In this document: piece after piece, positions 32,991-49,112 of the stretch
Layout: each line of letters starts with the position of its first letter
Position numbering within the stretch: position 1 is the stretch's first letter
Assembly (NCBI GenBank): GCA_049651785.1
Contig: JBASCT010000021.1
Span: 1-50,850 of the forward strand
Reading direction: 5' to 3'
DNA: 50,850 nucleotides
Source of the DNA: Minisyncoccia bacterium
GTDB lineage: Bacteria > Patescibacteriota > Minisyncoccia > Phycocordibacterales > Zambryskibacteraceae
Translations under genes and position numbers: made by a program
Notes under the pieces: generated by a model
What the model was told of the DNA's origin: nothing
Databases searched by the model: none
What the model saw: the letters and a program-made list of their open reading frames with translations, nothing else

Positions 32991-33019
32991 TTGACAATCT
33001 CTAAATTAAGTATTATATT
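32991..33019 (+). promoter_or_regulatory. Sigma-70 promoter TTGACA-17-TATATT
   Basis: TTGACA 32991-32996, TATATT 33014-33019. AAGGAGG at 33054-33060 precedes ATG 33065. Confidence 0.65.
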
Positions 33020-33064
33020 CATAAATAGACTAGCACTTAGACAATCTTAAAGCAAGGAGGTTAC

Positions 33065-33595: not shown

Positions 33596-33623
33596 CGTTT
33601 TCAAACAGCGCTAGTCCGTTTTT
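33587..33623 (+). terminator. Rho-independent terminator
   Basis: acggactagcg-(11-nt loop)-cgctagtccgt followed by tttt. The stem includes the GNAT stop codon. Confidence 0.75.
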
Positions 33624-33647
33624 AACATCATAAAAGAATTTCTCTTG

Positions 33648-33667
33648 CGTGGTATTATTAAAAAATG
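33648..33667 (+). promoter_or_regulatory. Promoter/leaderless-start module copy B
   Basis: CGTGGTATTATTAAAAAATG, identical to copies at 31991 and 35912. Confidence 0.65.
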
Positions 33668-33748
33668 AGTTTTCCTGTGTTTACCATAACACTTGGTATC
33701 TTTGCTGGGTTTGTGCAACCAATTACAACACTAGTAGTAACAATTTAG
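33665..33748 (+). pseudogene. Truncated 5' fragment of the same membrane-protein gene family (27 codons)
   Basis: MSFPVFTITLGIFAGFVQPITTLVVTI then TAG. The first 29 nt from the module start are identical to copy A; the sequences diverge after that. Confidence 0.45.
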
Positions 33749-33829
33749 CAGATTAGTGCATTATCTTGATTTCCTTGATCCGTTCCTGTAGTTTGGTGCC
33801 CAGATGTTCATTTAAATCCGGAGAAATCA

Positions 33830-34828: not shown

Positions 34829-35361
34829 TTTCTTTTGACGGACATGATTGTGTCGGCAAGACATCTCTGATGAGCGCGACTGTTCACGCGCTTTCAGAGA
34901 AAGGTCTTTCGGTTACAATGTTCAGGTCAGTAAATAAGGACTTTGAGACAGAGCGTCTGCGTCACTCAGAAGTATCTCAGAACATTTGGTTCTATGTGAG
35001 CGCATGGTTGAACACTGAAAAGGAAATCCTTAAATCAGTAGATTCAACAAACTTCATCTTCATCGACAGGTCTTATTACTCGACCATGGTTCTTGCTGGG
35101 GCCCTTGACCTCTATTTTCCTCATTTTCTCCTTCAAACATTCTTGAAGCCAGACTATGCGTTTTGGGTTCAGGTTAGTGAAGAGGAGAGAATGAGACGAC
35201 TCGAAAGAAAAAGAGCCACACGAGAGGACTACATAACCGTAAACGCCACACTCATAAGTAAGGCCGATCTGATTTACACATCCTTGGGGCTACTTCCGCT
35301 TAATAACGAGGGCCCACTTCAGGATGGAGCGCAAAGGCTTTCGGCGATTCTCCTTCGCTAA
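34810..35361 (+). CDS. Thymidylate-kinase-like P-loop nucleotide kinase
   Basis: FDGHDCVGKTS P-loop, FIFIDRSYYST (DR motif), PDYAFWVQVSEEERMRRLERKR lid-like region. 19-nt overlap with the radical SAM gene. Confidence 0.7.
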   Translation: MAKAKIVSFDGHDCVGKTSLMSATVHALSEKGLSVTMFRSVNKDFETERLRHSEVSQNIWFYVSAWLNTEKEILKSVDSTNFIFIDRSYYSTMVLAGALDLYFPHFLLQTFLKPDYAFWVQVSEEERMRRLERKRATREDYITVNATLISKADLIYTSLGLLPLNNEGPLQDGAQRLSAILLR

Positions 35362-35365
35362 TTAT

Positions 35366-35401
35366 AACTGCGTACTGTAAAATTATGGTACGCAGTTTTT
35401 T
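35366..35401 (+). terminator. Rho-independent terminator
   Basis: aactgcgtac-(12-nt loop)-gtacgcagtt running into tttttt. Confidence 0.7.
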
Positions 35402-35893
35402 ATGAAATTGTTATCAAAAAAAGTAGTCAATCTTAATAATTCTAATTTGAACGTCTCTATTTTTAAGATAGAGAGCGATAGTGACCTTTTTGGTGCAAGT
35501 CGAGTGTATGTACTAGGGGTAAATAAGGGCGGTTCAGTCTGCATAATTTTCAATGCAAAGAGAAAAATATGGGGTTTCCCAGGAGGTCATATAGACGAAG
35601 GCGAATCAGTGACAGAGGCAATAAAACGAGAAAGCATGGAAGAATGCGGATATTCTCTTGAGATTGTTGAGCCAAAATTTGTTATTGAAAATGTTGTTGA
35701 TGATAAGGTTGAGAAACAGGTAATATGTTTTGGCAGATTTGAACATAATATCAATAAGCTTAACGCAGCAGAAGGGGAGACTGTTACAGATGTAAGGTTT
35801 GTGAATCTGTCCGAATTAAACACACTTATTTCTTTGCCTCAAGTTTGGTCAGAAATAATTGAGGAATTTGAATTGTGGTTGAAAAACACCTAA
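35402..35893 (+). CDS. Nudix hydrolase
   Basis: Complete Nudix box GGHIDEGESVTEAIKRESMEECGY. Confidence 0.85.
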   Translation: MKLLSKKVVNLNNSNLNVSIFKIESDSDLFGASRVYVLGVNKGGSVCIIFNAKRKIWGFPGGHIDEGESVTEAIKRESMEECGYSLEIVEPKFVIENVVDDKVEKQVICFGRFEHNINKLNAAEGETVTDVRFVNLSELNTLISLPQVWSEIIEEFELWLKNT

Positions 35894-35911
35894 AAATAAC
35901 AAATCTCCTAG

Positions 35912-35931
35912 CGTGGTATTATTAAAAAATG
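35912..35931 (+). promoter_or_regulatory. Promoter/leaderless-start module copy C
   Basis: CGTGGTATTATTAAAAAATG. Here the ATG opens the 161-aa membrane protein gene. Confidence 0.65.
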
Positions 35932-36414
35932 AAAGAGGGGCACAAGAAAGTGGGGATTATTGCCGTAAGCTTCACTGTTGTTGAAGCGTTGAACTTTGCT
36001 TTTGATTTCATCACTTATCCACTGGCGATAGGATATCTTGGCGCCACCAAAGGTGGTGCTATTATGACAGTGCTCGCTCTCGGTTTAAATTATGGGTTGG
36101 TTGTTTTTTATAATAAAACAAACAGGGATTGGTTCGGTTTTGAGTGGTTAAGGCTTCAGAAACAAGAGGAGGCTAAGAGCGGACCAGGAAGAATTCTTCG
36201 CCACATACTACATTTTGGTCACTGGCCAGCTTATGTTTTTCTTTCGTGGCAAGATCCTTTCAAAGCTTTCGTTTTTGTCCGTGGTCGCAAGGCAGTAGGG
36301 GAGAAATTTAACAAAGCTGATTGGGCATGGTTTTTTGGGACAAATCTTCTCGGTAATTTAATCTGGATTGTAATAGTCTCTGGTGCGATTGAACTTATTA
36401 AACGCCTAATCTAA
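35929..36414 (+). CDS. Hypothetical membrane protein, 161 aa
   Basis: Track ORF with at least three hydrophobic helices. No family recognised. Confidence 0.6.
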   Translation: MKEGHKKVGIIAVSFTVVEALNFAFDFITYPLAIGYLGATKGGAIMTVLALGLNYGLVVFYNKTNRDWFGFEWLRLQKQEEAKSGPGRILRHILHFGHWPAYVFLSWQDPFKAFVFVRGRKAVGEKFNKADWAWFFGTNLLGNLIWIVIVSGAIELIKRLI

Positions 36415-36457
36415 ACAACACTGTCTATACGTTTTCAAATAGGTGTATAATTTGTGT

Positions 36458-36844
36458 ATGTCTATATCCTTAGATGAAAACACAAAAAGGTTGTTTGCTT
36501 TAGTGTTGATTCTTGTATTTGGAGTAATAACTTTCTCTACCTATAAATATTATGCACAAGAGAACTATACTCTCTATATTAAGACAAGTTGTGATCCAAC
36601 ATTAAATAATTGTTTTGTACAAAATTGTGATAGCGAAGAAGATATACGTTGTCCTTACACAGGAGATTACTATTACAAGATAATATTAAAAAATGCTTCT
36701 CAAATACCCTCATGTTTATCTGATGATTCCAACGCCTGTGGCGAGTTGACTTGTAACGACGATAATTGTGAAATTATCTATTGTTCTGAAGAAAACATTG
36801 AATTATTCGGACCCGAAGACACCTGTTCTTCCATAAGTGACTAA
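36458..36844 (+). CDS. Membrane-anchored Cys-rich protein (hypothetical)
   Basis: TATAAT 36446-36451 lies 6 nt upstream of ATG 36458; the track GTG start 36443 would sit inside the promoter. One TM helix, then a domain with at least 10 Cys. Confidence 0.55.
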   Translation: MSISLDENTKRLFALVLILVFGVITFSTYKYYAQENYTLYIKTSCDPTLNNCFVQNCDSEEDIRCPYTGDYYYKIILKNASQIPSCLSDDSNACGELTCNDDNCEIIYCSEENIELFGPEDTCSSISD

Positions 36845-36851
36845 CAGAAAA

Positions 36852-37646
36852 ATGGTAGAAGCGACACATACCACGATTGTTAACGAGATATACTCGACTC
36901 TTTCAGAAATAGAGCACGAATTAGTAAAACGCAGAAAGAATAAAAAACTCAAAAAATTGGTAGAAGATTTTCTTGGCACTTATTTACTAGAAGAACTTAG
37001 ACTGAAACCAAGAGCAGTTTTGTCACGAACAATAATTAATCCCAACACCGAATTTAGATATTTCTTAGATTTAGCCAAAGAACTTAAACTTGATCCATTA
37101 GGATTTGAGTATCACGATAAGTTTGTGACAAAGAATCCTGACAAATATCATCTTGCAAAAATGTATTTTGCAAAAAAAGAAAACGATGGCACTCAAACTT
37201 TATCAAGTACCAAAATAGTTGATTTTAATAAATACGAAGGTAAAAATTTTGAAGAAATAAAAACCCAAAATAATGAATCTCTAATTGACTTCCATCACAA
37301 AATCCTTCTTTCTAAATATCCAGAAATGCTTAATAATATTGTAGATATTACCCAATGGTTTCAGACCACAAGAAAGTTGTCCAAGTTTTATTACTTGTAT
37401 TTTTTATCCTTGTTTATTTGTCACGGGGTGTTATTTGATAACTTTCTTTTGAAAGAAAAAGGTGAGGCAGATTTTTTTGAAGAAAAAGTTTATCCGAGTT
37501 TTCAGGAAATAAGTAAAATGTTTGGCGTTAAACCACTTATTTACCCGCTTTTACCAATAGAGTACGAAAAAGATAGCCAATGGATGGCTTACGAGGATGA
37601 TATGAAACAGGAGATTGATGACAATTTTAATGATAAACTAAAATAG
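36852..37646 (+). CDS. Hypothetical protein, ~264 aa
   Basis: Track ORF 36837..37646 (GTG). ATG 36852 is more likely. Ends 2 nt before the kinase gene. No family recognised. Confidence 0.55.
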   Translation: MVEATHTTIVNEIYSTLSEIEHELVKRRKNKKLKKLVEDFLGTYLLEELRLKPRAVLSRTIINPNTEFRYFLDLAKELKLDPLGFEYHDKFVTKNPDKYHLAKMYFAKKENDGTQTLSSTKIVDFNKYEGKNFEEIKTQNNESLIDFHHKILLSKYPEMLNNIVDITQWFQTTRKLSKFYYLYFLSLFICHGVLFDNFLLKEKGEADFFEEKVYPSFQEISKMFGVKPLIYPLLPIEYEKDSQWMAYEDDMKQEIDDNFNDKLK

Positions 37647-37648
37647 TA

Positions 37649-39274
37649 ATGGGTTACAACTTAGAACAAAATATTGAATATTGTAGAGTAATTGTGGAAG
37701 AGTTTTCTGGTCTTTTATATTACTCACACATCCCTTCTGCAGCCGTAGCACTTTTAATTGGATTTTTTGTGTTCTGGAAAAATAAAGACTCTCTTCTTGC
37801 CATTCTTTTATTGATCATTAGTGTTTTATTTACTTTCTGGAGCGCTCTAGATTTGGCTATCTGGATGAACTATGCCAAGGGTGACATTGTGATGGCGGCG
37901 TGGGCACCAATAGAGCTTATTGCTGTACTAATATTTGTTTTCTGTTTGTACTTTGTGTATGTCTTTACTGATGGTAAAGATGTAAGTCTGTCTAAAAAAC
38001 TTATTTGGACTGCCCTTGTGTTACCAATGATATTAGTTTTGCCAACAGTATTTAATCTAGAGGGCTACGATATTCAGGAGTGTATAGCAACAGAGAGTAC
38101 GTATTACCAGCTGTACTATCGTGCACTTAAAATTATATTTTCTGTATGGATAGTATTTACTCTGATTCGCAAATACATTGAAACCAAAGGTGAGTTTAAA
38201 AAACAAATAATGTTTCTAGGGCTAGGAATGACTATTTTTATTCTAAGTTTCTTTGTAGCGGGTTATGTATCAGATACAACTTTTGACTATAGTTACGAAA
38301 TGTATGGTTTGTTTGCCATGGCAATCTTCATGGCATTCCTAGCGTATCTAATTGTTAAATTTAAAACATTCCATCTTAAACTCTTTGGCGCCCAAGTTCT
38401 TATAATTTCTCTAATTATTCTCATCGGTTCTCAATTTGCTTTTATTCAGACTACTACTAATAAAATCCTTACCTCTGTAACATTAATAATTACCGGTCTC
38501 ATCGGCATTAATTTGATCAGAAGCGTTAGAAAGGAAATTGAAGCTAAGAAGCACATTGAAAAACTTGCAGGTGAGTTGCAGACAGCCAACGAAGGTCAGC
38601 AAAATCTTATCCATATTATTAACCACCAGATTAAGGGCTACTTGGCGAAGGCGAGAAATATATTCTCCGAACTTTTGAATGAGCCGAGTTATGGCCCCGT
38701 CTCGGACGCTTCTAAGCCGATGCTTGAAGAAGGATTCAAGTCGCTCACGGAGGGTGTTGACCTCGTCAAAGACTTTTTGGATGCCTCCAATATCGAGCGG
38801 GGCTCGTATGCCTTCAGTCTCGCACCCCTTGATTTCAGGGCACTCGTCGAAGAGATGGCGGAGAAAGAGAAGAGTCTCGCGGAAGATAGAAAGCTTTCTT
38901 ACGAAGTGAAAATTGAGAATGGTGACTACAACACAAAAGGGGATAAGCTCCAGCTCGGACAAGCGGTCAAGAACCTGATAGACAACTCTATCCGCTACAC
39001 TCTCGAGGGTGGTCTCTCTGTAAATCTCTCAAGGAAGGATGGCAAGATTCTCTTCTCGGTCAAAGACACTGGCGTTGGTCTCTCGGAAGAGTTGAAGCCG
39101 AAACTCTTTACCCAAGGCGGTCGTGACAAGAACTCTATCAAGATAAACATCAACTCCACTGGCTTCGGTCTCTCCTTCGTTAAAAGTGTTGTTGAAGCAC
39201 ATAAGGGTCGTGTCTGGGCCGAGTCCGACGGTCCCAACAAAGGCTCCACTTTTTACATGGAATTGCCAGTGTAA
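37649..39274 (+). CDS. Sensor histidine kinase with large multi-TM N-terminal domain
   Basis: About 8 hydrophobic helices. H-box region IHIINHQIKGYL. N box NLIDNSIRYT, G1 DTGVGL, G2 GFGLSF. No response regulator nearby. Confidence 0.85.
   Translation: MGYNLEQNIEYCRVIVEEFSGLLYYSHIPSAAVALLIGFFVFWKNKDSLLAILLLIISVLFTFWSALDLAIWMNYAKGDIVMAAWAPIELIAVLIFVFCLYFVYVFTDGKDVSLSKKLIWTALVLPMILVLPTVFNLEGYDIQECIATESTYYQLYYRALKIIFSVWIVFTLIRKYIETKGEFKKQIMFLGLGMTIFILSFFVAGYVSDTTFDYSYEMYGLFAMAIFMAFLAYLIVKFKTFHLKLFGAQVLIISLIILIGSQFAFIQTTTNKILTSVTLIITGLIGINLIRSVRKEIEAKKHIEKLAGELQTANEGQQNLIHIINHQIKGYLAKARNIFSELLNEPSYGPVSDASKPMLEEGFKSLTEGVDLVKDFLDASNIERGSYAFSLAPLDFRALVEEMAEKEKSLAEDRKLSYEVKIENGDYNTKGDKLQLGQAVKNLIDNSIRYTLEGGLSVNLSRKDGKILFSVKDTGVGLSEELKPKLFTQGGRDKNSIKININSTGFGLSFVKSVVEAHKGRVWAESDGPNKGSTFYMELPV
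38978..39271 (+). repeat. Direct repeat copy 1 (3' end of the histidine kinase gene)
   Basis: 294 nt aligns without indels to 44290-44583 with about 18 mismatches counted by eye. Codon-level similarity extends ~12 nt further upstream. Confidence 0.9.
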
Positions 39275-39289
39275 TGAATATTTAACTTT

Positions 39290-40504
39290 ATGCTCAAACG
39301 CATTACTGGATATGATTATTCTCCTGATTTAGAAGAAGTAGAGGTTATCGAGAGAAAGGGGATTGGCCATCCAGATAGCGTTGCAGACATAATTGCCGAA
39401 TCATTTTCAAATGATTATTCAAAATATTATCAAAAAAAATACGGCAAAATTTTAAATCACTGGTTTGATAAAGTTTTAATTTCTGGAGGGGAAGCTATCC
39501 TTAGACCTGGATTTGGTAGTATTATCAAAAAACCAAAGGTATATCTTTTTGGCAAAATAACCAGAGTAAGCAATGACGATTTAAATATTGAAGAATTTTT
39601 TAAAATTACAGTTTTTAGGGTAATGCGCGATATATTCGGTATTGAAGATGAAATAATGCCAGATATTGTTGTAGATACCAACTCTGGAGTCGGAGCAGAA
39701 CACCCTATAAGTTTTTATAATACCAATGTTTATGATATTACTAAAGAGAGTGATGACTTAGTTTCAAACGACACAATTTTCTGCAATGGATACTATCCAT
39801 ATACTAAATTAGAACATTACGTTTGTGACCTTGAAAATTATATTAACTCCAAATCATTTAAAGAAAATCATTATTATACTGGTTTTGATGTTAAGGTTCT
39901 TGCTAAACGAATTAAAAATAATATAGATATCACGGTATGCATTCCTTTTATTGCGGCCAGAACAGAATCTTGGGCATTATATTTTGAATTAAAGAAAAAC
40001 ATTGAAAATGATCTTTACTTTTTTACTAAAAAATTTAAGTGGGACAGCGTCAATATACACCTAAACACAAAGGATCGAGAAGGCAAGGGCTTTTTAACTT
40101 TATATGGAAGCGCCTTCGACAAGGGTGATTTTGGTGTGGTAGGTAGGGGAAATAGATATTTGGGCTTCATCACCTCTTGTCGTGGGGAAACCCAAGAAGC
40201 TTATAGTGGAAAAAACCCAGTTATTCACTCGGGAAAATTATTCTCGATAATAGCTCATCGTATTGCAAGAAAGATAAGTATTCTAGATGGTGGTCCTGTT
40301 AAGGTTATTATATGTATCAATAACGGGTCTCCTATTAAAGAACCAGAATCTGTATTTGTATTTACTAAAGATAAGAAAATATCTGATCAGCATATAAGAG
40401 GATTATTGCTCAACGAATTTAATAATATTCACAATATTACTACTCACATTATTAATTTAAATCCAGTAGAAGAGTTTGTTACAAAAAGCATTCTACTATC
40501 ATAA
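39290..40504 (+). CDS. Archaeal-type S-adenosylmethionine synthetase (MAT, PF01941-like) homolog
   Basis: ERKGIGHPDSVADIIAE, SNDTIFCNGYYP, GDFGVVGRGNR and SGKNPVIHSGK align by eye to the conserved blocks of archaeal MAT. Confidence 0.7.
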   Translation: MLKRITGYDYSPDLEEVEVIERKGIGHPDSVADIIAESFSNDYSKYYQKKYGKILNHWFDKVLISGGEAILRPGFGSIIKKPKVYLFGKITRVSNDDLNIEEFFKITVFRVMRDIFGIEDEIMPDIVVDTNSGVGAEHPISFYNTNVYDITKESDDLVSNDTIFCNGYYPYTKLEHYVCDLENYINSKSFKENHYYTGFDVKVLAKRIKNNIDITVCIPFIAARTESWALYFELKKNIENDLYFFTKKFKWDSVNIHLNTKDREGKGFLTLYGSAFDKGDFGVVGRGNRYLGFITSCRGETQEAYSGKNPVIHSGKLFSIIAHRIARKISILDGGPVKVIICINNGSPIKEPESVFVFTKDKKISDQHIRGLLLNEFNNIHNITTHIINLNPVEEFVTKSILLS

Positions 40505-40510
40505 AATATT

Positions 40511-41374
40511 ATGCATATATTGGTTTCTTTATTTCACACTACTATCGATTTGCCCAGCTTATATGTTTTTGACTCTGATTTGAATCCAGTACTTAAATTT
40601 GCAAATGAATACAGAAACATCAAAGGATTGTTTTTAAGTAAAAGTTTTATATATGCCGGCTATAAGGATGAAAATAATGATTGTTGGCTGTTAATATTTT
40701 CCAAGCAATTTTTTAAACTTGTAAATAAATGTTTACTAATAAACACCATTGACATACACTCCATCTACATAACGAATAATCTGTTGTATGTAGTATCAAG
40801 TGGGACAAACAGTATTTATGTGTATAAAATTGATAACTTGGAGAATCTGAATAAAGCCAATCCCATCAGTAACATAAAAACATTAATTACTGATATAGAC
40901 AATGAAGACATTCTTCATTTAAACAGTATTTATATAAAAGAAAACAACGACTTATTTATTACGGGTTTTGGAGGCAAGAAGCAGGGGGAATGGAATAAAG
41001 AATGCAATGGCTTCATATTGAACATTAAGCAGAATATAGTACTATTGGATGGAATATTTCACCCGCACTCATTATTTTTTAGAGACTCTGATATGTGGTT
41101 TTGTGAATCTGGTAAAAAAAGAGTATATAAAAATAAAGAAATCGTGGTGGATAAAGCAGATGGGTATACTAGGGGTCTCGCTCTTTCTGAGAACGGCAAG
41201 TTTCTATTACTAGGAACTTCTACTTCACGTATTTATGGTCAAGAAGAGGTTGACCTAAAAACAAGTGGGGTTCATAAATTTGAAATAAATGAAAAATCAT
41301 TTTTAGTGCCTGTAAAGTCATTTTATTTTAAAGATACACAGGCGGAGATTTATGACTTAATAGAGTTAAGATGA
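40511..41374 (+). CDS. DUF4915/TIGR03032-like beta-propeller protein
   Basis: LHLNSIY, HPHSLFFRDSDMWFCESGKKRV, GYTRGLAL and EIYDLIEL resemble the conserved blocks I recall for that family. Assigned from memory only. Confidence 0.5.
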   Translation: MHILVSLFHTTIDLPSLYVFDSDLNPVLKFANEYRNIKGLFLSKSFIYAGYKDENNDCWLLIFSKQFFKLVNKCLLINTIDIHSIYITNNLLYVVSSGTNSIYVYKIDNLENLNKANPISNIKTLITDIDNEDILHLNSIYIKENNDLFITGFGGKKQGEWNKECNGFILNIKQNIVLLDGIFHPHSLFFRDSDMWFCESGKKRVYKNKEIVVDKADGYTRGLALSENGKFLLLGTSTSRIYGQEEVDLKTSGVHKFEINEKSFLVPVKSFYFKDTQAEIYDLIELR

Positions 41375-42255
41375 AAAAAACGATAACTTATATTGGAATA
41401 TCGCCGTTTAATAGTAGTCCTAGAATGGGAGGCCTGAGGACAATGCTATACACATATGTTTTTACTCGTCATAATAATGGACTTATATATTTAAAATCAG
41501 ATGATACTAATCCAGGCAGTAGAATTAAGGACAACTATTATTCCCAAGTTAAGTTTTTAAATGCGTGCGGCTTAAACTTTGAAAGCAATGAGCTAAAGAA
41601 TCCTAGTGGATCATCAATTTTTCAATCTGAAAATAGCACAGTTTATACTGAATATTTAAATAAATTAGTTGATTGTGGGCTGACATCTGAAAAAGATAGC
41701 TTAGTCTCTTTAGATATTAGAGCAATAATTGATTATTTAAAATTGAAAAACATAACCATACACGATTTATTAAGGGGTGACATAAATTTTAAAGCAGATA
41801 GATTGGGTTATGAATATATACCACTATATTCTCGCAGTAAAAAAAGGTTTTTCTTCCATCTCCCAACTATTATTGATGAGTCAATCTACGGAACCACCCT
41901 GCTTATAAGAGGCGAAGATAAAATTTCTACAGCCCCGATTCATGAAATTTTAAAAAAATTCTTTTTGTTAGAGAAGCAAGATTATCTACACCTACCTTTA
42001 TTGTTAGACAAATCAACAAATAAAAGAATAAAAAGTGATAATTATTTAGTAAGCGAGATGGTCAAAAAGTACCCAACCCCTGTAGTGGTAGCATACTTAC
42101 TTTTATCTGGTTATAGGAGTAGAAGGTTTAAATATGTTTCATTAAGTGAATTTACTGAAGATTTCAATTATCACAAATTGAAAAAGCAGTCCGGAAAGTT
42201 TTATGAGGAAGATCTTATTAAAATATCCGAAAAATACCGTAAGCTAATTAAATAG
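41371..42255 (+). CDS. GluRS/GluQRS-like class I catalytic-domain paralog with degenerate HIGH and KMSKS
   Basis: ISPFNSSPRMGGLRTMLYTYVF (HIGH position reads PRMG), FQSE, LLIRGEDKISTAPIHE, YLHLPLLLD..NKRIKS. 294 aa with no anticodon-binding domain. ATGA overlap with the upstream gene. Confidence 0.6.
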   Translation: MKKTITYIGISPFNSSPRMGGLRTMLYTYVFTRHNNGLIYLKSDDTNPGSRIKDNYYSQVKFLNACGLNFESNELKNPSGSSIFQSENSTVYTEYLNKLVDCGLTSEKDSLVSLDIRAIIDYLKLKNITIHDLLRGDINFKADRLGYEYIPLYSRSKKRFFFHLPTIIDESIYGTTLLIRGEDKISTAPIHEILKKFFLLEKQDYLHLPLLLDKSTNKRIKSDNYLVSEMVKKYPTPVVVAYLLLSGYRSRRFKYVSLSEFTEDFNYHKLKKQSGKFYEEDLIKISEKYRKLIK

Positions 42256-42267
42256 TTAACAATTATA

Positions 42268-42276
42268 TGTTATACT
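42268..42276 (+). promoter_or_regulatory. Extended -10 box TGtTATACT, 12 nt upstream of metG ATG
   Basis: Same 9-mer as upstream of leuS (9258-9266). Confidence 0.5.
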
Positions 42277-42288
42277 CAAAGATTAATT

Positions 42289-43743
42289 ATGCAGAAGCAA
42301 AAGTATTTTTACATAACGACGACATTGCCGTATGTAAACGCACAACCGCACATAGGTCACGCCTTGGAATTTGTACGTGCAGATTCGATAGCAAGATATA
42401 AAAAAATTAATGGCTATAATGTCTTTTTCAACACAGGCACTGATGAGCACGGGCAAAAACTGCTAGAAGCAGCAAATAAAAAAAATATTAACATTAAAAA
42501 TTATGTTGATACCAACTCGCAAGTATTCAAAAAATTACTCGTGATTTTGGGTATAAGTGAAAACATTAATTTTATTCGTACTACTGATCCTAATCATATA
42601 AAAGCGGCACAAGAATTTTGGAAAAGGGTCGAGAAAAACGGATTTATATATAAAGCCAAATATCAGGTAAGGTATTGTGTGGGGTGTGAACTTGAAAAAT
42701 TCGACTCAGACTTGGTGGATGGGAGGTGTCAGTATCATCCGACACTAGATATTCAGATAATAAATGAGGATAACTATTTCTTTAGACTTTCTGATTTTCA
42801 AGATAGATTAATCAGTCTTTTTGAGAAAAACATAAATTTTATTTTACCAGAGTCTAGATACAATGAAGCAAAAAATTTTATTTCACATGGGCTTAAAGAT
42901 TTTTCAATATCTAGATTGAAATCAAAGATGTCTTGGGGCATTCCGGTTCCCGGCGATGACGAGCACGTAATGTATGTATGGTTTGATGCCCTAACGAGCT
43001 ACATAAACGCCTTAGGATGGCCTGAAAACGTAGAAATTTTTAAGAAATATTGGGTTAATGGAACTCCTGTTCAGTATTGTGGACAAGACAACCTAAGACA
43101 ACAGTCAATTATATGGCAAGCAATGTTGATGGCTGCTAATTTACCAAACTCTAATAAAATAATTGTAAATGGTTTTGTGCTTGGTGAAGGCGGGGTAAAG
43201 ATGTCTAAAACTGCGGGTAATGTTATAGACCCCATTAAGTTGGTTGAAAATTATGGTAAAGACGCAGTACGTTTATACTTGCTGAAAAATATCCACCCAT
43301 GGAATGGCTCACCTATTTCATACAAATCATTCCATCTTACATATGAAGCTGAGCTTGTTAATGGTCTTGGTAACTTAACCTCACGGCTGTTGAATATGTC
43401 AGAAAAATATTTAAACGAACCAGTTAGTTTCCCAGATAAATTTGAATCTAAAGAATGGTTCGACCACTTTGAAGACTATAGAATGGATTTAGTTACTGAG
43501 TTTATATGGGGGAAAATCTACAAATTAGATAAATCGATCTCTGAAACTGAACCCTTTAAATTGGTCAGTACAGATCTGCCAAAAGCGCAAATGTTGTTAA
43601 AAGAATACGCAAGAGATTTATACACTATCGCCCAAATGCTAGAGCCGTTATTACCAGAAACAAGCCGTCAAGTTAAAGGTTTAATAAAACAGAACAAAAA
43701 ACCTAGGGCACCTCTTTTTCCAAGAAAAAGGATGTTAAAATAA
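42289..43743 (+). CDS. metG: Methionyl-tRNA synthetase (core form, 484 aa)
   Basis: PYVNAQPHIGHALE (HIGH), single knuckle CVGCE...CQYH, VWFDAL, KMSKTAGNVIDP. Confidence 0.9.
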   Translation: MQKQKYFYITTTLPYVNAQPHIGHALEFVRADSIARYKKINGYNVFFNTGTDEHGQKLLEAANKKNINIKNYVDTNSQVFKKLLVILGISENINFIRTTDPNHIKAAQEFWKRVEKNGFIYKAKYQVRYCVGCELEKFDSDLVDGRCQYHPTLDIQIINEDNYFFRLSDFQDRLISLFEKNINFILPESRYNEAKNFISHGLKDFSISRLKSKMSWGIPVPGDDEHVMYVWFDALTSYINALGWPENVEIFKKYWVNGTPVQYCGQDNLRQQSIIWQAMLMAANLPNSNKIIVNGFVLGEGGVKMSKTAGNVIDPIKLVENYGKDAVRLYLLKNIHPWNGSPISYKSFHLTYEAELVNGLGNLTSRLLNMSEKYLNEPVSFPDKFESKEWFDHFEDYRMDLVTEFIWGKIYKLDKSISETEPFKLVSTDLPKAQMLLKEYARDLYTIAQMLEPLLPETSRQVKGLIKQNKKPRAPLFPRKRMLK

Positions 43744-43747
43744 TACT

Positions 43748-43822
43748 GGGAGGGTAGCTCAGCCTGGTAGAGCACTGGTATCATTTACCAGAGGTCATGG
43801 TGTTCAAATCCCATCCCTCCTA
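43748..43822 (+). tRNA. tRNA-like gene, anticodon CAT (Met/Ile2 type), atypical structure
   Basis: Hand fold. Acceptor GGGAGGG/CCCTCCT (G1-U72). D arm GCTC-AGCCTGGTA-GAGC. Anticodon stem CTGGT/ACCAG with loop ATCATTT. T arm ATGG(T)G-TTCAAAT-CCCAT needs a bulged U. No CCA encoded. Confidence 0.6.
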
Positions 43823-43860
43823 CTAACTTTAATATTAAAAATATTGTAAGAGTTGTTGCA

Positions 43861-44589
43861 ATGATTGAATTTGAAGCAAAATTTTTAGATATAGAAAAGG
43901 GAAAGATTAGGGCACTCCTAAAACATAAGGGCGCGCGCCTTGTTAGACCTGAATATAGCCAAAAACGATTCAACTTTCACCTGCCTAAAGATAAGAGATC
44001 TAATGATGCTTGGTTAAGAGTTCGTAATGAGGGTGATAGGATCACACTAGCCCTCAAAATGATTACGGGATCTAGCATAGAAGATCAGAAAGAAATCCAA
44101 CTAGTAATTGATAGTTTTGATAACGCAATTACTCTCCTTGAGTCAATAGGATGTGAGAAAAAAGCTTTTCAAGAGTCAAGGAGAGAGCTTTGGAAGTTAG
44201 GTCAAACAGAAATTACAATAGATGAATGGCCTGGATTGGAGCCGTTTGTTGAGATTGAGGGATCCTCTGAAGATGAGGTAAAAAACCCTATAGACAACTC
44301 TATCCGCCACACTCTCGAGGGTGGTCTCTCTGTAAATCTCTCAAGGAAGGACGGCAAAATTCTTTTCTTTGTCAAAGACACCGGTGTCGGTCTCTCGGAG
44401 GAGCTGAAGCCGAAGCTCTTCACCCAAGGTGGTCGTGACAAGAACTCTATCAAGATAAACATCAACTCCACTGGCTTCGGTCTCTCCTTCGTTAAATGTG
44501 TTGTTGAAGCACATAAGGGTCGTGTCTGGGCCGAGTCCGACGGCCCCAACAAGGGCTCCACTTTTTACATGGAATTGCCCGTGATTTAA
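43861..44589 (+). CDS. Chimeric ORF: C-terminally truncated CYTH (CyaB/triphosphatase-like) domain fused to a histidine-kinase HATPase_c fragment
   Basis: N-terminal IEFEAKF (ExExK) CYTH signature for about 140 aa. From ~44278 the sequence duplicates the last ~100 codons of the kinase at 37649..39274. Confidence 0.65.
   Translation: MIEFEAKFLDIEKGKIRALLKHKGARLVRPEYSQKRFNFHLPKDKRSNDAWLRVRNEGDRITLALKMITGSSIEDQKEIQLVIDSFDNAITLLESIGCEKKAFQESRRELWKLGQTEITIDEWPGLEPFVEIEGSSEDEVKNPIDNSIRHTLEGGLSVNLSRKDGKILFFVKDTGVGLSEELKPKLFTQGGRDKNSIKININSTGFGLSFVKCVVEAHKGRVWAESDGPNKGSTFYMELPVI
44290..44583 (+). repeat. Direct repeat copy 2
   Basis: See 38978-39271. The central ~110 nt are identical. Most differences are third-codon positions. 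Confidence 0.9.
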
Positions 44590-44590
44590 G

Positions 44591-45301
44591 ATGGTAACAA
44601 GTAACCAAAAAGAAGTACTTTTCAGGGAAATTTTCTCGTATATAAAAAAATACCAAGTTAAGTCACTCCTCGATATCGGAGCGGGGGATGGTCCTTTGGC
44701 CAAAAGATTGGCGGGCAAGGTTTCCGAATATCTTGCTGTTGAGCGCGACAGTAGGCGAGCTAAAAATTTAAGATCACTAGGACTAAACGTAATTCACGGC
44801 ACTTTTCCTGTAAAAACAGGGAAGAAGTTTGATATGGTGCTTGTCTCTCATTCCATACCAGAAAACGCTACATTCTATAAACCATTTTTAAAAAGAGCGT
44901 GGAATTTGGTTAACGGCGATGGGATTTTGCTGATAATAACTTTTAAAGGCCAACTCGGCGAGCTATATAAACTTAGAAGAGAATGGCGAGCTACTGATAG
45001 TCAAGGAAATCGAGACATGGAACCCTACAAACTCATGCTAAAGATTCTCAGAAGTTTTGGCGGTGTCAAAATTCATAGGGCCGTCAGCGAATTCAAATCC
45101 ACCAATCTTGCTGAAATCGTCAAGTTAACCATGTTATCGGTAGGTCCCGCGAAAGCAAAAAGACAAGCGTGCAAACAATTTCTCGGAAAATTTTTAAAGG
45201 ACAGCCGTCGCTCCAGGAAACCATACACCCTCAGTCACCAACACATCTTTTTATCCGTCCGCAATAAAAAAGGGCCAGCAACCTATGTTGCTGGCCCTTA
45301 A
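44591..45301 (+). CDS. Class I SAM-dependent methyltransferase
   Basis: Motif I LLDIGAGDGPLA. Starts 2 nt after the stop of the chimeric ORF. The 3' end runs through the terminator hairpin. Confidence 0.7.
   Translation: MVTSNQKEVLFREIFSYIKKYQVKSLLDIGAGDGPLAKRLAGKVSEYLAVERDSRRAKNLRSLGLNVIHGTFPVKTGKKFDMVLVSHSIPENATFYKPFLKRAWNLVNGDGILLIITFKGQLGELYKLRREWRATDSQGNRDMEPYKLMLKILRSFGGVKIHRAVSEFKSTNLAEIVKLTMLSVGPAKAKRQACKQFLGKFLKDSRRSRKPYTLSHQHIFLSVRNKKGPATYVAGP
45272..45297. terminator. Bidirectional hairpin terminator
   Basis: gggccagcaac-ctat-gttgctggccc, preceded by aaaaaa. Lies between convergent genes. Confidence 0.75.
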
Positions 45302-45315
45302 GTCAAGCGGGCACC

Positions 45316-45678
45316 CTACGTTTCGTAGTGACCCTGGTGTTGTGTACCGTCCGGCGTTCTGAGGCAGTGGCAGGCCATGCGAACATCTCCATCGCGGCCC
45401 AGGCGCCAGCTCGTCTCGAGGATGTTCTGGCCACGGACGACGTCGGCAGAAACGGATCTGATGATCTGCTCACGCGTCTTGCGGTTGGTGGTCTCGAACA
45501 GGACTTCTCCTTCATTGATTGGGAAGTGAGTGTGCAGGATGTTGATCCCGAAACGGTCAAGGGCGTTGTGCTTCTCGAGCACCTCCGCGAGTTCGCGGAA
45601 GAGCCCATCGTCCGCCGCAGTTTTCGGTCTGACCGAGTCGACATCTGGCAGTCTCGAATATGCAAGTGCCACGTTCAT
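45316..45678 (-). CDS. Hypothetical protein, 120 aa, GC-rich
   Basis: GGAGG 7 nt upstream of ATG 45678 (track ORF extends to 45723). MNVALAYSRLPD...ILHTHFPINEGEVLFET. Family not recognised. Confidence 0.55.
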   Translation of the reverse strand: MNVALAYSRLPDVDSVRPKTAADDGLFRELAEVLEKHNALDRFGINILHTHFPINEGEVLFETTNRKTREQIIRSVSADVVRGQNILETSWRLGRDGDVRMACHCLRTPDGTQHQGHYET

Positions 45679-45798
45679 CGTGTCGCCTCCGTAATGGGTT
45701 GGTAAAAAACAAATATTGCTCAACAGTTGTACGTATTTTCTGCCGCTACATTAAGTGTTTTTATCTTTTTTGTCAATCATACCATCCGTAATTCTCCC

Positions 45799-45828
45799 TT
45801 GTAGTCTAATTCGCGCGAATGATAGAAT
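45799..45828 (+). promoter_or_regulatory. Promoter with embedded palindromic operator ATTCGCGCGAAT
   Basis: TTGTAG 45799-45804, palindrome 45809-45820, TGaTAGAAT ending at 45828, ATG 6 nt downstream. Confidence 0.65.
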
Positions 45829-45834
45829 AAGGGT

Positions 45835-46110
45835 ATGAAAGACAGGGAATTAGAAAGAGTATTAAAAGCGCTGGCCAACAGAAGACGCCTTGCGATTCTT
45901 GAGAGCTTACGCAAAGACAAAGAAAAAAGTGTTGGCGAGATCGCCGATAGTATCAAATTATCATTTCGCGCCACCTCAAAACACCTATTAATTCTTGTCG
46001 GCGCAGAAATTCTTGATAAAGAACAAAGAGGGCTACAGATGTTTTATAGTCTGAATAAATCTGCTCCGGACGTGGTCAAACAGCTTCTCCGCACTCTCTC
46101 CCTAGTCTAG
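45835..46110 (+). CDS. ArsR/SmtB-family HTH transcriptional regulator (no Cys)
   Basis: LKALANRRRLAILESL......SVGEIADSIKLSFRATSKHLLIL winged-helix pattern. There is no cysteine in the protein. Confidence 0.8.
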   Translation: MKDRELERVLKALANRRRLAILESLRKDKEKSVGEIADSIKLSFRATSKHLLILVGAEILDKEQRGLQMFYSLNKSAPDVVKQLLRTLSLV

Positions 46111-46111
46111 C

Positions 46112-46138
46112 TAGTCTAATTCGCGCGAATAGGAGAAT
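46112..46138 (+). promoter_or_regulatory. Second copy of the operator (tagtctaATTCGCGCGAAT) with a GAGAAT -10-like box
   Basis: 19 nt are identical to 45802-45820. Lies 48 nt upstream of ATG 46187. Confidence 0.6.
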
Positions 46139-46186
46139 AGTTTGGGAACGATTGACCGAGGATGGGTGGGTTGCTAGAGTAGCGGC

Positions 46187-48643
46187 ATGAAAAGGTTTCC
46201 GGTCCTGATTTTAGCCTTATTTTTCCCCATTTTTGCGAGCGCCGCGATAGAGAATCCTTATGTTGTTGATGAGAAACCAAGGGTACTATTTGGAGACAGC
46301 GTGGAATGGAATGGTCACTACGGTTTGGAAAACTATGCTTACGAGTATGTGAATGGATACCTACATATAACATTTACTTATACTCATGGACCATTTTTCC
46401 CGGGCTATCCGCCAGTTTTATACATTACTGGTTCGGATCCACGAAGCACCTCGACGCCCGAGGTAATCGCTAATGAAGTTATTCTCGAACTCACACCCTT
46501 TTCCGGTGGGATTGGCGCCCCTTCTGGTTGGTATACATACGATATTCAATTTTATGAAAATCTTTATCATGTCACGATAAAACTTTCTGGAGTTTCCGTT
46601 GCTTACGAATTCGATAAATCCTATTCAGGATCTGGAGACAATAAGTGGGCAGCCCTAGCAAATAACCACCCAAATGTTGGGGACAATCAATCGATGGCGT
46701 TCACACCCGTCCCTGTTAAGGAAACAGGCCCGGTAGAAGAATGTTGCTCGAGCGTCCTTTTCTTGCCGGGGATGAAGGGCAGTGTGTTGAAAATGGGGTC
46801 TGACACTTTATGGCCGGCGACATTCTTTGGCAACGACTTGCCGGCGCTAGCCTTAACAGAAGAAGGGGAGAGTGTGAATAATGTTTATGTGGACGGAATC
46901 TTACAAGAATTTGCTAATGCTGATATCTATCTACCGTTCTCAACATTTTTGGACGGTCTTGTTTCTGAAACGCTGATAAACGATTGGCTCCCTATGGCGT
47001 ATGACTGGCGCTTTTCTCCGGAAAAAATTCTTGCAGACGGAGTTAAAACAGAAAGCGAGACTATAGATATCATTGAAGAAATAGAAGAACTGGCCTCAAG
47101 CTCGCAGACCGGGCAGGTGACTATCGTGGCGCACTCCATGGGCGGGCTTATGGGCAAGGCGATTATCAAAGAACTTGAGGCGCTGGGGAAGGATGATTTG
47201 ATTGATTCATTTGTCATGGTGGGCACGCCTCAGCTCGGCACACCACAGGCAATAGGGGCTCTTCTCCACGGTTATGACGAAGACATTTTAGGTGGGTTTG
47301 TCGTTGGCCCAGCTCAGGCGCGCACGGTGTCTCAGAATATGCAAAGCGCATATAACCTTCTGCCATCCAGAAAATACTTCGAAGAAGTAATTGATCCGGT
47401 TATCACCTTCGACCCCCAAGCTTCTTTTACCCAAGAGTGGAGGGATTTTTGGGGCGAAGACGGCATAAATGACTATAGCGGCTTCTCTTCATTTTTGACT
47501 GCTACTGGAGTAACTAGGGAAAGACCCGGCGAATTAGACCTTAGAAATCCTGAGGTACTACGCGCAGACTTGGTTAACACCGCTGATGAAACTCATCAAG
47601 TGTATGACAACTACGCATTACCAAGTCATATCAGAACGGTGCAGGTGGCTGGGTGGGGCTTCCCGACGGTCAAGGCCATTCACTATAGAAACCGACATGG
47701 TCAGCCGAGTTACGACGTGGCATTCACTGTAGAGGGGGATAAGACCGTTGTTTATAAAAGTGCAATTGCATCTGTTGGAGAAACGTATTTTTTTGATTTA
47801 GCCACATATAATTCTCTCGAAGATACACCAGATTTCCAGCATAGAAGCGTTTTAAATTCTTTACCAATACAAGATTTAATCAAAACCATTGTTGAAGAGA
47901 ATGATGTTACAACAAATTCATTCGTCAGAATAACAAAACCACTACCAGACGATGTTACTAGGGCTTTAATTGTAAGCGCACACTCTCCAGTAATTTTAGG
48001 CGTGTATGACGAATTCAATAATTTCACCGGCATTGACCCAAATCAAGATTTATCCGCAGAAATTCTGTCTATAACGGAAGACATTCCTGGAAGCGCCTTT
48101 TTGTACACTAGCGAGAGCCAATATATATTCTTACCGAAAGAAGGTCTTTATAACTTTGTCTACACGGGTATAGATAATGGCTCCACTACAATAGAAATTA
48201 AAGATTTCACAGCCGATGTTGTCACACCTATTACCGCCTATTCAGATATATCGACCACAGAATTGACCACGGCAACCTTTACCGTAAATAGCGAGAATCC
48301 AGATACTACGATAATAAAACTTGATACGGATAGTGACGGAGAACTTGATGAAATAATTGTCTCTGACGATGCCGATATCTATGATTTACTCGCACTTCTC
48401 AAAGATAAAATAAAATCGCTGAACATCAAGGAAAAACTAAAGGTTAACCTTTTAAAGAAAATAGAAAATCTAGAGAAAAAGATAGAGAAGAAAAAAGCAA
48501 AAGACAAATCACTAGAAACAATAAAGAAGAAGGTTGGGAATCTCATCAAGAGAATACTTAAGAAAGAAGAAAAGAGTGTTGTTAGCGAAGCTGATGCGCA
48601 GGAAATTATTAAACTATTAGAACAAATAGAAAATGCGATATAA
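46187..48643 (+). CDS. Large secreted alpha/beta-hydrolase (lipase/LCAT/PGAP1-like) with Lys-rich coiled-coil tail
   Basis: Signal peptide VLILALFFPIFASA. Nucleophile elbow VTIVAHSMGGLMG. C-terminal KEKLKVNLLKKIENLEKKIEKKKAKDK. Confidence 0.7.
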   Translation: MKRFPVLILALFFPIFASAAIENPYVVDEKPRVLFGDSVEWNGHYGLENYAYEYVNGYLHITFTYTHGPFFPGYPPVLYITGSDPRSTSTPEVIANEVILELTPFSGGIGAPSGWYTYDIQFYENLYHVTIKLSGVSVAYEFDKSYSGSGDNKWAALANNHPNVGDNQSMAFTPVPVKETGPVEECCSSVLFLPGMKGSVLKMGSDTLWPATFFGNDLPALALTEEGESVNNVYVDGILQEFANADIYLPFSTFLDGLVSETLINDWLPMAYDWRFSPEKILADGVKTESETIDIIEEIEELASSSQTGQVTIVAHSMGGLMGKAIIKELEALGKDDLIDSFVMVGTPQLGTPQAIGALLHGYDEDILGGFVVGPAQARTVSQNMQSAYNLLPSRKYFEEVIDPVITFDPQASFTQEWRDFWGEDGINDYSGFSSFLTATGVTRERPGELDLRNPEVLRADLVNTADETHQVYDNYALPSHIRTVQVAGWGFPTVKAIHYRNRHGQPSYDVAFTVEGDKTVVYKSAIASVGETYFFDLATYNSLEDTPDFQHRSVLNSLPIQDLIKTIVEENDVTTNSFVRITKPLPDDVTRALIVSAHSPVILGVYDEFNNFTGIDPNQDLSAEILSITEDIPGSAFLYTSESQYIFLPKEGLYNFVYTGIDNGSTTIEIKDFTADVVTPITAYSDISTTELTTATFTVNSENPDTTIIKLDTDSDGELDEIIVSDDADIYDLLALLKDKIKSLNIKEKLKVNLLKKIENLEKKIEKKKAKDKSLETIKKKVGNLIKRILKKEEKSVVSEADAQEIIKLLEQIENAI

Positions 48644-48652
48644 TTAGAGACT

Positions 48653-49069: not shown

Positions 49070-49093
49070 TAAGGATATTTAAGGCAGAAAATC

Positions 49094-49102
49094 TGGTATT
49101 AT
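49094..49102 (+). promoter_or_regulatory. Extended -10 box TGgTATTAT, 10 nt upstream of trpS ATG
   Basis: Same TGGTATTAT core as the three cassette-junction modules. Confidence 0.5.
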
Positions 49103-49112
49103 TGAGGGATAT

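Follow-up and report, generated by a model that had tools for sequence, protein, structure and literature searches.

In a 50,850-nt stretch of DNA from a Minisyncoccia bacterium (contig JBASCT010000021.1, positions 1 to 50,850 of the forward strand; hereafter the window), the 3' end of a sensor histidine kinase (HK) gene is present twice in direct orientation, and a cassette of foreign composition without any recombinase gene lies between the two copies. The first copy completes an intact kinase, and the second, joined in frame to a truncated CYTH-domain gene, appears to be a displaced fragment at the beginning of decay. The same kind of layout was found at the same kinase gene in three other genomes. 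The best family of explanations is, in our view, a RecA-type integration anchored on the conserved kinase 3' end and completed by an illegitimate joint at a microhomology, to which we assign a probability of roughly 0.6.

Duplicated kinase end and its joint with a CYTH gene

Within 36000-47000, a repeat finder gave one long direct repeat (38965-39264 versus 44277-44576, 93% identity, spacing 5312 nt). Base-by-base comparison of 38978-39271 with 44290-44583 gave a gap-free alignment of 294 nt, in which 14 third, three first and one second codon positions are mismatched (18 in all), and this agrees with a preliminary description of the window, made from its sequence alone, in which an ungapped alignment with about 18 mostly third-position mismatches was reported. 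The similarity can be extended leftward to 38966 (22 mismatches in 306 nt), where the initial 6-9 nt are a microhomology with the CYTH gene, the true kinase-derived start of copy 2 being at about 44284-44286. The repeat is real and not due to chance. Copy 1 (38966-39271, forward strand) is the functional kinase 3' end from the N-box to the last codon and, as had been described, ends a full-length kinase, which is intact and has 541 aa. Copy 2 (44284-44589, forward strand) is 82% identical to the kinase end of the closest relative, locus L011 (on the same contig as L014; GCA_964446535.1), whose core DNA is 77.5% identical to that of the window.

The mismatches are distributed unevenly: the two copies diverge by 10% in 38978-39118, by 0.9% in 39119-39231 (partner 44431-44543, both on the forward strand) and by 7.5% in 39232-39271. 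The preliminary description called the central 110 nt or so identical, which is nearly right, since the tract exists and is 113 nt long, but it contains one mismatch, at 39185, between the longest identical runs of 66 nt (39119-39184) and 46 nt (39186-39231). A patch of such near-identity had p=0.023 in a permutation test, and the synonymous divergence (dS) between the copies is 0.45 in the 5' 141 nt versus 0.09 in the 3' 153 nt. Because the 3' half of the repeat is synonymously saturated against L011 (proportion of synonymous differences, pS, 0.72-0.78), constraint cannot account for the patch. With its 7.5-10% divergent flanks, the patch would be compatible with a crossover, a heteroduplex or a gene-conversion tract, and it is regarded here as a candidate tract of this type.

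Over the whole repeat, dS is 0.249, the nonsynonymous divergence (dN) 0.0157 and their ratio (omega) 0.063. A dS of 0.25 means that the lineages of the two copies had separated before the copies were joined, and most of the synonymous divergence predates the fusion; these source lineages are far less separated from each other than the window is from L011, where synonymous sites are saturated. The divergence had been taken as synonymous only, but four amino-acid differences exist (L443P, Y450H, S470F and S513C) and all of them are derived in copy 2. At position 450, where copy 2 has His, Tyr is found in 119 of 119 homologues; at position 443, Leu is found in 109 of the 119 and Pro in none; and the L011 protein has the copy-1 states at 450, 470 and 513. 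The N-box helix of copy 2 therefore carries a Tyr to His replacement plus an introduced Pro. Since the changes found only in copy 2 include the invariant Tyr450, selection on both copies is unlikely, and of the two origins offered in the preliminary description for the divergence, copies from different lineages (dS 0.25, omega 0.06) can be kept, while selection on both cannot readily be.

Copy 2 comprises about the last 102 kinase codons, 5.3 kb downstream of the kinase. It retains the N, G1 and G2 boxes and a third-position GC content (GC3) of about 0.60, and it has neither the DHp/H-box region nor the strands and half-helix preceding the N-box, so that its Pfam match begins at profile position 10. 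Its decay amounts to about 0.018 substitutions per nonsynonymous site, with no frameshift. Judged from these features, copy 2 is best read as a pseudogene fragment that is starting to decay, and not as a new kinase.

The ORF that contains copy 2 (CYTH'::HATPase', 43861-44589, forward strand, 242 aa) is most likely non-functional. Pfam assigns residues 1-141 to CYTH and 140-241 to HATPase_c, with no HisKA match and no H-box. Its CYTH' part (43861-44283, forward strand) consists of the first 141 codons of a gene that encodes about 192-194 aa in relatives, and it is 84% identical to the stand-alone 194-aa protein P0122. In an alignment of the chimera with seven CYTH homologues, similarity stops at ...SEDEVK (residue 141), and the homologues run about 53 residues further; the ExExK motif (EFEAK) is kept, with only 141 of about 194 CYTH residues left. 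The in-frame fusion of copy 2 to roughly 140 CYTH codons, with N, G1 and G2 boxes and no H-box, is thus confirmed, the exact number of codons being 141.

CYTH codon 141 and the kinase N-box are joined illegitimately at 44278-44289 on the forward strand, at the sequence GTNAANAA, which is an imperfect microhomology of about 8-9 nt between CYTH codons 140-142 and the kinase N-box. In a four-way DNA alignment, the chimera agrees with a CYTH homologue as far as GTAAAAAA and, starting with AAC, with the kinase; at the joint itself it reads GTAAAAAAC, as compared with GTAAAAAAA in the CYTH homologue and GTCAAGAAC in the kinase. The CTG>CCT change adjacent to the joint produces L443P. A word-indexed search listed 120 CYTH entries, mostly of 190-200 aa with a few shorter partial records, and among them HATPase_c was found in the window's own protein only, the other 119 being CYTH-only. 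In an exhaustive HMMER search of 1.84 billion representatives, both halves together were matched by none; scores reached 155.6 bits at best, and the top matches mainly cover residues 2-142, or 138-241 with a short upstream extension at most. The description of this ORF as a chimera accordingly stands against the possibility, named together with it, of a conserved natural fusion.

The window is matched by three contigs from an independent assembly (k=31) of run SRR28011868, namely L012 at 31460-39026 (100%), L006 at 39202-43783 (99.98%, one mismatch) and L001 at 44514-50850 (100%). All three break exactly at 31-mers common to both repeat copies, and this is the behaviour expected from a genuine two-copy repeat. 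L006 joins the copy-1-specific 3' variants (39232, 39241 and 39268) to the first cassette gene, which encodes a methionine adenosyltransferase (MAT), L001 joins the copy-2-specific 3' variants to the methyltransferase gene behind copy 2, and L012 carries the kinase continuously across an internal composition shift. None of the retrieved contigs spans the repeats or 43784-44513, and the CYTH'::kinase joint rests on the window assembly. The order of intact kinase, cassette and remnant is also present in three other loci of metagenome-assembled genomes (MAGs) from different assemblies, which counts against an assembler artefact. Exact-protein look-ups for the chimera, the kinase and the 269-aa protein encoded upstream of the kinase found none on record, as may be expected if short-read contigs break in the repeat or if gene starts differ.

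Cassette, surrounding DNA and recurrence of the layout

All genes of the cassette are on the forward strand. The first (39290-40504) encodes an archaeal-type MAT, i.e., an S-adenosylmethionine (SAM) synthetase, of 404 aa (PF01941, E=4.5e-81; GC3 0.24), whose matches to the NCBIfam MAT models are under the model cut-offs. It is followed by a DUF4915/TIGR03032-like gene (40511-41374, 287 aa, Pfam and NCBIfam; GC3 0.31), a gene for a truncated GluRS/GluQRS-like catalytic domain (41371-42255, 294 aa, PF00749), a gene for a short-form methionyl-tRNA synthetase (MetRS; 42289-43743, 484 aa, PF09334, and TIGR00398 above cut-off), a tRNA gene with anticodon CAT (43748-43823, Met-type) and the truncated CYTH gene. 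GC3 is 0.24-0.33 in the five cassette ORFs, versus 0.55-0.75 in host genes and 0.50-0.75 in the genes of 1-32000 and in the TrpRS gene; it is about 0.60 in both kinase-end copies and 0.40 in the methyltransferase gene. This low GC3 relative to the host marks the cassette as foreign, while the kinase ends resemble DNA of the host clade.

No recombinase or transposase was found among the five cassette ORFs (MAT, DUF4915, GluRS-like, MetRS, CYTH) or the neighbouring ORFs scanned. The cassette is single-copy in the window. DUF4915 had no close relative in a scan of JGI metagenomes. A scan with MetRS gave 80 loci with at most 58% identity; the protein and is of the ordinary short Patescibacteria form, and none of these 80 loci had MAT, DUF4915, GluRS-like or CYTH genes near it. 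The GluRS-like family has 11 relatives besides the window protein, all of 274-301 aa, the best with 48% identity. Counts of promoters and terminators in 38900-46200 were not above shuffled expectation.

Two observations on the cassette genes may be added. On an unrelated contig, recorded as L126 (1153-3307) and L127 (1073-3227), an archaeal-type MAT gene and a GluRS-like gene are adjacent as in window 39290-42255, and the pair adjoins a sulfotransferase-like gene and a class I aminoacyl-tRNA synthetase (aaRS); from this gene order, MAT and the truncated GluRS-like protein probably form a functional module, possibly an uncharacterised SAM/aminoacyl module. The tRNA, which was detected by ARAGORN and by Rfam RF00005 (49.3 bits) and has a cloverleaf fold, has an atypical anticodon loop, ATCATTT, between the perfectly paired arms CTGGT/ACCAG; position 37 is U and not a purine, and the T-arm is weak. 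Elongator Met, initiator and Ile2-type tRNA and a decaying copy are candidates for its identity. Since contig L006 ends inside this gene, a similar tRNA elsewhere in the sample is suggested.

Compared with L011, the extra DNA is longer than the 5.3 kb of the preliminary description. Similarity to L011, where the kinase is followed by an ArsR-type helix-turn-helix (HTH) gene, an LCAT-like gene, two small ORFs and TrpRS, ends at the kinase stop and resumes at window 45796, so that the extra DNA is 39275-45795 (about 6.5 kb) and includes the methyltransferase gene and a convergent 135-aa ORF. Synteny then continues on the forward strand through 45796-50850 with an ArsR-type HTH gene, an LCAT-like lipase gene, a 138-aa ORF and TrpRS, as judged by Pfam and DNA alignment (L011 9446-9953 versus window 45796-46302, 77.4%; L011 12705-15083 versus window 48438-50850, 77.7%). 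The class I SAM methyltransferase (44591-45301, forward strand, 236 aa, weak Pfam methyltransferase matches) begins with an ATG at 44591, one base past the TAA of the chimera (44587-44589), and it had been proposed as the original downstream partner of the kinase. This methyltransferase gene is absent from all 27 other orthologous loci examined, and the kinase there is followed by TrpRS directly or by a variable insert and then TrpRS. A role as a conserved kinase partner was rejected, and the methyltransferases behind the remnants of L018 and L021 are unrelated to that of the window. The gene was just the neighbour that the kinase had at the time of insertion, and it is itself compositionally foreign.

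For surveying other genomes, the kinase transmitter half was scanned against one genome per species, and 23 orthologous loci were obtained. Three of them, L018, L021 and L025, have an intact kinase, a cassette and a kinase 3' remnant that reaches the kinase stop. On a query of the 231 C-terminal residues of the kinase, the remnant starts at 130 in the window, at 95 in L018 and L021 and at 152 in L025. L018 and L021 have in common a cassette with a monomeric PheRS-like ligase, an MvdD-type ATP-grasp maturase of ribosomally synthesized and post-translationally modified peptides (RiPPs) and a small repeat-rich ORF, and the cassette of L025 has a radical-SAM/SPASM maturase-like gene and a SprT-like gene. 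A recombinase gene is missing from all three cassettes.

In core DNA, the identity between L018 and L021 is 72-77%, and in the body of the kinase it is 55-78%. It rises to at least 95% over a block that begins about 75 nt ahead of the kinase stop, takes in the cassette and extends about 240 nt into the remnant; in the final 200 nt or so of the remnant, it is 70-88%. This block, both borders of which lie inside the kinase-end homology, indicates that the cassette moved between genomes. L021 also has an analogous near-identical tract between its two copies (59 of 60 positions). A simple Campbell model with one shared allele was tried for L018 and L021; it predicted that the full copy of one genome equals the remnant of the other between the crossovers, and this was not seen. 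A Campbell model is workable for them only if the element carried two different kinase-end sequences.

Chimeras of the same ATPase domain were also found among database proteins. In P0293 and P0307, the kinase ATPase domain follows truncated Resolvase domains (serine-recombinase N-termini), with the shared peptides AEKKGL and NG[IL]IK at the junctions, and in P0269, whose source annotation is a KdpD-like kinase, it follows an unrelated low-complexity N-terminus; these join at positions unlike those of the other events. The kinase-TrpRS interval as a whole is variable among relatives and holds nothing, HTH-LCAT genes, CYTH, RiPP-type enzymes or aaRS-like genes. In L034, kinase and TrpRS have a CYTH gene between them, and in L017 such a gene follows the kinase directly; a donor whose interval ended in CYTH is therefore plausible.

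Some details of these loci are as follows. The PheRS-like ligase (L018 10761-13150, L021 10791-13180) consists of a PheS core and an FDX-ACB domain and resembles the NCBIfam "PheS-related mystery ligase SrmL". The ATP-grasp maturase of L018 and L021 is of MvdD/MvdC type, and a 53-aa ORF with EVT(K/E)DKERE repeats (L021 13013-13174) could be a graspetide precursor. For L025 (cassette and DNA past the remnant, 3281-5580 and 6248-8426), another radical-SAM gene follows the remnant, as does one resembling purine/MTA phosphorylase genes. The kinase of L025 is encoded by two ORFs, one for the membrane part and one for a 275-aa soluble core of a kind that also occurs in P0311.

Integration model and alternative explanations

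The preliminary description had proposed entry by homologous recombination with a related kinase allele, and this is the best mechanism for a foreign block bracketed by diverged kinase ends. In the model that we prefer, DNA of a related lineage, whose variable kinase-TrpRS interval held another cargo, would have arrived, presumably by natural transformation, with its own kinase end followed by low-GC genes for MAT, DUF4915, the GluRS-like protein, MetRS, tRNA-Met and CYTH. On the left side, homologous exchange within the kinase would have used the conserved transmitter DNA as a one-sided anchor, and on the right side, the free end would have been joined illegitimately inside the recipient kinase at GTNAANAA. 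Along the new strand, recipient DNA would run as far as the crossover, followed by the kinase end, the cassette and the truncated gene of the donor, and then by the recipient's kinase sequence between joint and stop together with the recipient DNA downstream of it. The outcome would be an intact kinase (copy 1), the cassette, a truncated CYTH gene fused to the displaced last 300 nt of the kinase (copy 2), and then the methyltransferase gene onward.

Two sub-variants of this model may be considered. In sub-variant (a), a single event of homology-facilitated illegitimate recombination (HFIR) in the window lineage would have been followed by gene conversion of the 113-nt tract. In sub-variant (b), the joint would have been made earlier elsewhere, and the unit "kinase end, cassette, remnant start" would have entered ends-in (Campbell-type) with an exchange inside 39119-39231. 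Once formed, such a unit could act as an ends-in targeting fragment, which would account for the block shared by L018 and L021 as well as for the identity patch in the window. The one-sided anchor model accounts for the fixed right end at the kinase stop, the variable left end, the gene cut at a microhomology, the lack of a recombinase, the intact kinase and the diverged copies. For many Patescibacteria, both the retention of homologous-recombination genes and DNA uptake by ComEC and pili have been reported (PMC12455944).

Several points weigh against this model. No donor or sister genome with the cassette was found, so that which way the DNA moved, where the left crossover lay and which of the two sub-variants applies can only be inferred. 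HFIR events in the laboratory usually delete recipient DNA and do not leave a duplicated anchor. The contigs of SRR28011868 give no link from one side of the 113-nt tract to the other, so that the continuity of the tract is that of the window assembly, and the extent of the microhomology was judged from a CYTH homologue of 84% identity and not from the true donor beyond the joint. The database chimeras P0293, P0307 and P0269 come from short contigs (759-3166 bp) and might themselves have arisen in assembly; they give support and not proof. In addition, the low GC3 of the kinase sensor half and of two genes upstream of it, described below, implies more than one recombination event, or one larger event, in the history of the locus.

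Among the alternatives, we consider unlikely a site-specific integrative element of the type of e14 or phage 21 at icd, in which an integrase, since lost or acting in trans, would have supplied a replacement 3' end and left the native end as a pseudogene. The layout is the same as that of icd-e14-icdC, where the element-borne end keeps the gene intact and the displaced C-terminal fragment lies at the other side (PMC13626634). In Escherichia coli, most differences between the two ends, icd and icdC, are synonymous, and e14 can be lost when they recombine with each other (PMC13626634, citing Hill et al. 1989). Like the element of the window, e14 and phage 21 sit in the 3' end of a conserved gene whose ORF is kept, the native end being a C-terminal pseudogene on the far side. 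Recurrence at one target gene in several genomes and the two database remnants fused to serine-recombinase N-termini also speak for such an element. However, e14 has its own site-specific recombination system and a defined att core, while no recombinase is encoded in the window or in the cassettes of L018, L021 and L025, and the left ends of the repeat differ between events (130, 95 and 152) without a fixed att core. The end of the element here is an in-frame CYTH gene truncated at a microhomology and not an att arm, and the recombinase fragments of P0293 and P0307 are themselves cut at microhomologies. Furthermore, in 2.9 million viral contigs there was no relative of the kinase end or of MAT. 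Among viral contigs, P0307 likewise had no relative, and P0293 had one match, via its recombinase N-terminus only.

Slightly less credible still is a wrong choice of assembly path, i.e., a chromosome with the kinase directly before the methyltransferase gene plus a separate 5312-bp circle (MAT...CYTH'::kinase end), or a mixture of strains. A direct repeat and a single copy plus circle yield an identical de Bruijn graph, and the k=31 contigs break just at the repeat. In either topology, however, the CYTH'::kinase joint and two diverged kinase ends are required; the SNPs that tell the copies apart occur together with MAT and with the methyltransferase gene just as in the window; the diverged flanks are at most 113 nt apart, which ordinary 150-nt reads or a large k can resolve; the circle would carry no replication gene; and the same integrated layout is found in the three other MAGs. 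We give a little less weight again to an in-situ tandem duplication by illegitimate recombination between CYTH and the kinase N-box, after which the second cassette copy would have been lost or replaced and the repeats would have diverged, although the microhomology at the CYTH'::kinase joint resembles the join point of a duplication. Duplication plus replacement had been the second mechanism of the preliminary description and is disfavoured, as the cassette is single-copy and a dS of 0.25 between the repeats stands against a decay of copy 2 of only about 0.018 per nonsynonymous site without frameshift. It also needs extra steps of deletion and allele replacement, and it does not account for the block that moved between L018 and L021 with its borders inside both repeats. 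The least probable alternative is that CYTH'-HATPase' is a new functional protein under selection, for example an ATP-binding regulator. The ORF is intact and in frame, has its own start and upstream region and keeps ExExK, N, G1 and G2, and omega between the copies is low. Yet 141 of about 194 CYTH residues are left, the ATPase domain is incomplete, DHp/H-box is absent, Y450H and L443P fall at invariant or near-invariant sites, the architecture is unique among the 1.84 billion representatives, and the low omega is a legacy of the time before the two parts were fused.

The RecA-type integration model can be compared with known routes of gene acquisition. HFIR in natural transformation is known from Acinetobacter baylyi, Streptococcus pneumoniae and Pseudomonas stutzeri (de Vries and Wackernagel 2002; Prudhomme et al. 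2002). As in HFIR, the window has one homologous anchor (kinase ends with 93% identity over 300 nt), another end joined at a microhomology and no mobile-element enzymes; unlike HFIR, which comes mainly from laboratory selections with loss of recipient DNA, the joint here lies inside the anchor gene, the anchor end is duplicated and natural uncultured lineages are concerned. Campbell-type insertion of suicide plasmids likewise duplicates the region of homology directly, with both copies possibly hybrid and an identity patch at the exchange, but the window represents a natural event with no plasmid backbone, in which a chromosomal fragment, linear or circularised and bounded by the two kinase-end copies, would play the part of the "vector". 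Hotspots or flexible islands between core genes are exchanged by flanking homologous recombination, and classic ones keep both flanking genes single-copy. The kinase-TrpRS interval resembles them in its variability and in a cargo rich in translation-related genes, in which genomic islands of Patescibacteria are reported to be enriched (PMC12455944), and it differs in that the end of one flank is present twice, with a foreign gene breaking off at the second copy. What is new here is the joint inside the anchor gene, the recurrence of the scar at one gene in uncultured lineages and the transfer of a cassette between genomes in such a form.

How tiny-genome Patescibacteria (candidate phyla radiation, CPR, bacteria) acquire genes is poorly understood; islands have been reported, and mechanisms are mostly guessed. 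The present locus shows at base resolution the scar of an acquisition event, in which a homologous anchor, the joint at a microhomology, the displaced end of a gene and a candidate conversion tract can be recognised, and it makes transformation with one-sided homologous recombination a testable route of gene flow. The kinase-TrpRS interval is also a site at which accessory genes, such as those for extra aaRS-like enzymes, SAM synthetase and RiPP maturases, can be sought. For annotation, caution is needed because CYTH-HATPase and Resolvase-HATPase fusions in metagenome catalogues can be recombination debris. As a tentative and rather doubtful generalisation, the 3' end of this kinase gene, conserved in Paceibacteria, might be a general integrase-free landing pad, at which RecA and natural transformation insert cassette units into any kinase-bearing genome. 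If true, this would define a class of recombination-mobilised cassettes among ultra-small bacteria without an element-encoded enzyme, with a cargo of aaRS-like, SAM-related and RiPP-maturase genes.

Kinase mosaic and neighbouring features

The kinase gene (37649-39274, forward strand) encodes a 7TM sensor region, DHp/H-box and HATPase_c (Pfam HATPase_c 431-540, HisKA_7TM 30-243). It has 714 homologues, and those with a named source belong to Paceibacterota, Minisyncoccia, Parcubacteria or Zambryskibacteria, all of which are Patescibacteria, or are labelled just "bacterium". The change from AT-rich to GC-richer DNA near 38600, noticed in the preliminary description, is real: GC3 is about 0.30 until about 38500 and then about 0.60, with a sharp jump near 38500-38600. 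The sensor half (37649-38520, forward strand, GC3 0.28-0.39) is of a lineage unlike that of the rest of the gene, and the transmitter half with the H-box and the N, G1 and G2 boxes (38526-39274, forward strand, GC3 0.57-0.64) has a host-like composition.

Residues 1-310 are 65% identical to P0002 and 30% to P0017, and residues 311-541 are 56-73% identical to P0002 and 87-92% to P0017; an identity of 87-92% in the transmitter half is also found with P0008. In a sliding-window comparison, the switch of lineage falls at residues 285-300, near nucleotide 38520. DNA similarity to L011 begins at 38526, with none in the kinase to the left of it, and the transmitter half is 77.7% identical to L011 in DNA, like the core genes. 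The two genes upstream of the kinase (36443-37646) have a low GC3 as in the sensor half, and their homologues lie upstream of the kinase in loci of the P0002 type (both in L003, only the 269-aa one in L002). Since the sensor and transmitter halves have different closest relatives, the shift at about 38520-38600 marks a genuine second recombination joint between the two modules.

The upstream part of the window contains ribosomal genes, GrpE, DnaK and DnaJ and is syntenic with relatives, and an ORF at 30085-31926 encodes an ABC ATPase according to Pfam. Between this gene and the kinase, 32000-36400 is a compositional patchwork (GC3 0.29-0.56) with genes for a radical-SAM protein, thymidylate kinase, NUDIX hydrolase and a GNAT acetyltransferase, and unknown ORFs. 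Because L011 has low-GC genes in the same interval, the interval upstream of the kinase is also variable. Within it, a 49-nt direct repeat (31991-32039 versus 33648-33696) with 88% identity extends over the DNA upstream of two small ORFs and into their first codons (ATGAGTTTTCC...), and its two members enclose a 1.6-kb low-GC stretch with a 214-aa minus-strand ORF and the GNAT gene. Homologues of a 161-aa ORF (35929-36414) recur upstream of the kinase in several relatives, and in L018 a repeat pair of about 670 nt with 80% identity (5509-6177 and 6964-7635), each member of which matches this ORF, looks paralogous.

On the downstream side, the 135-aa ORF convergent with the methyltransferase gene (45316-45723, minus strand) has a GC3 of 0.68 and no Pfam match. 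A strong 13-bp hairpin with eight GC pairs and a minus-strand T-run lies between the two genes at 45270-45299, and this terminator-like structure suggests that the 135-aa ORF is a real gene. A partly palindromic repeat of 26-28 nt (TAGTCTAATTCGCGCGAAT...) is found on both sides of the ArsR-type HTH gene, at 45802-45829 and 46112-46139. In L025, a pair of 26-nt repeats (11997-12022 and 12322-12347) likewise flanks the HTH gene. These repeats probably serve as operator sites for that regulator.

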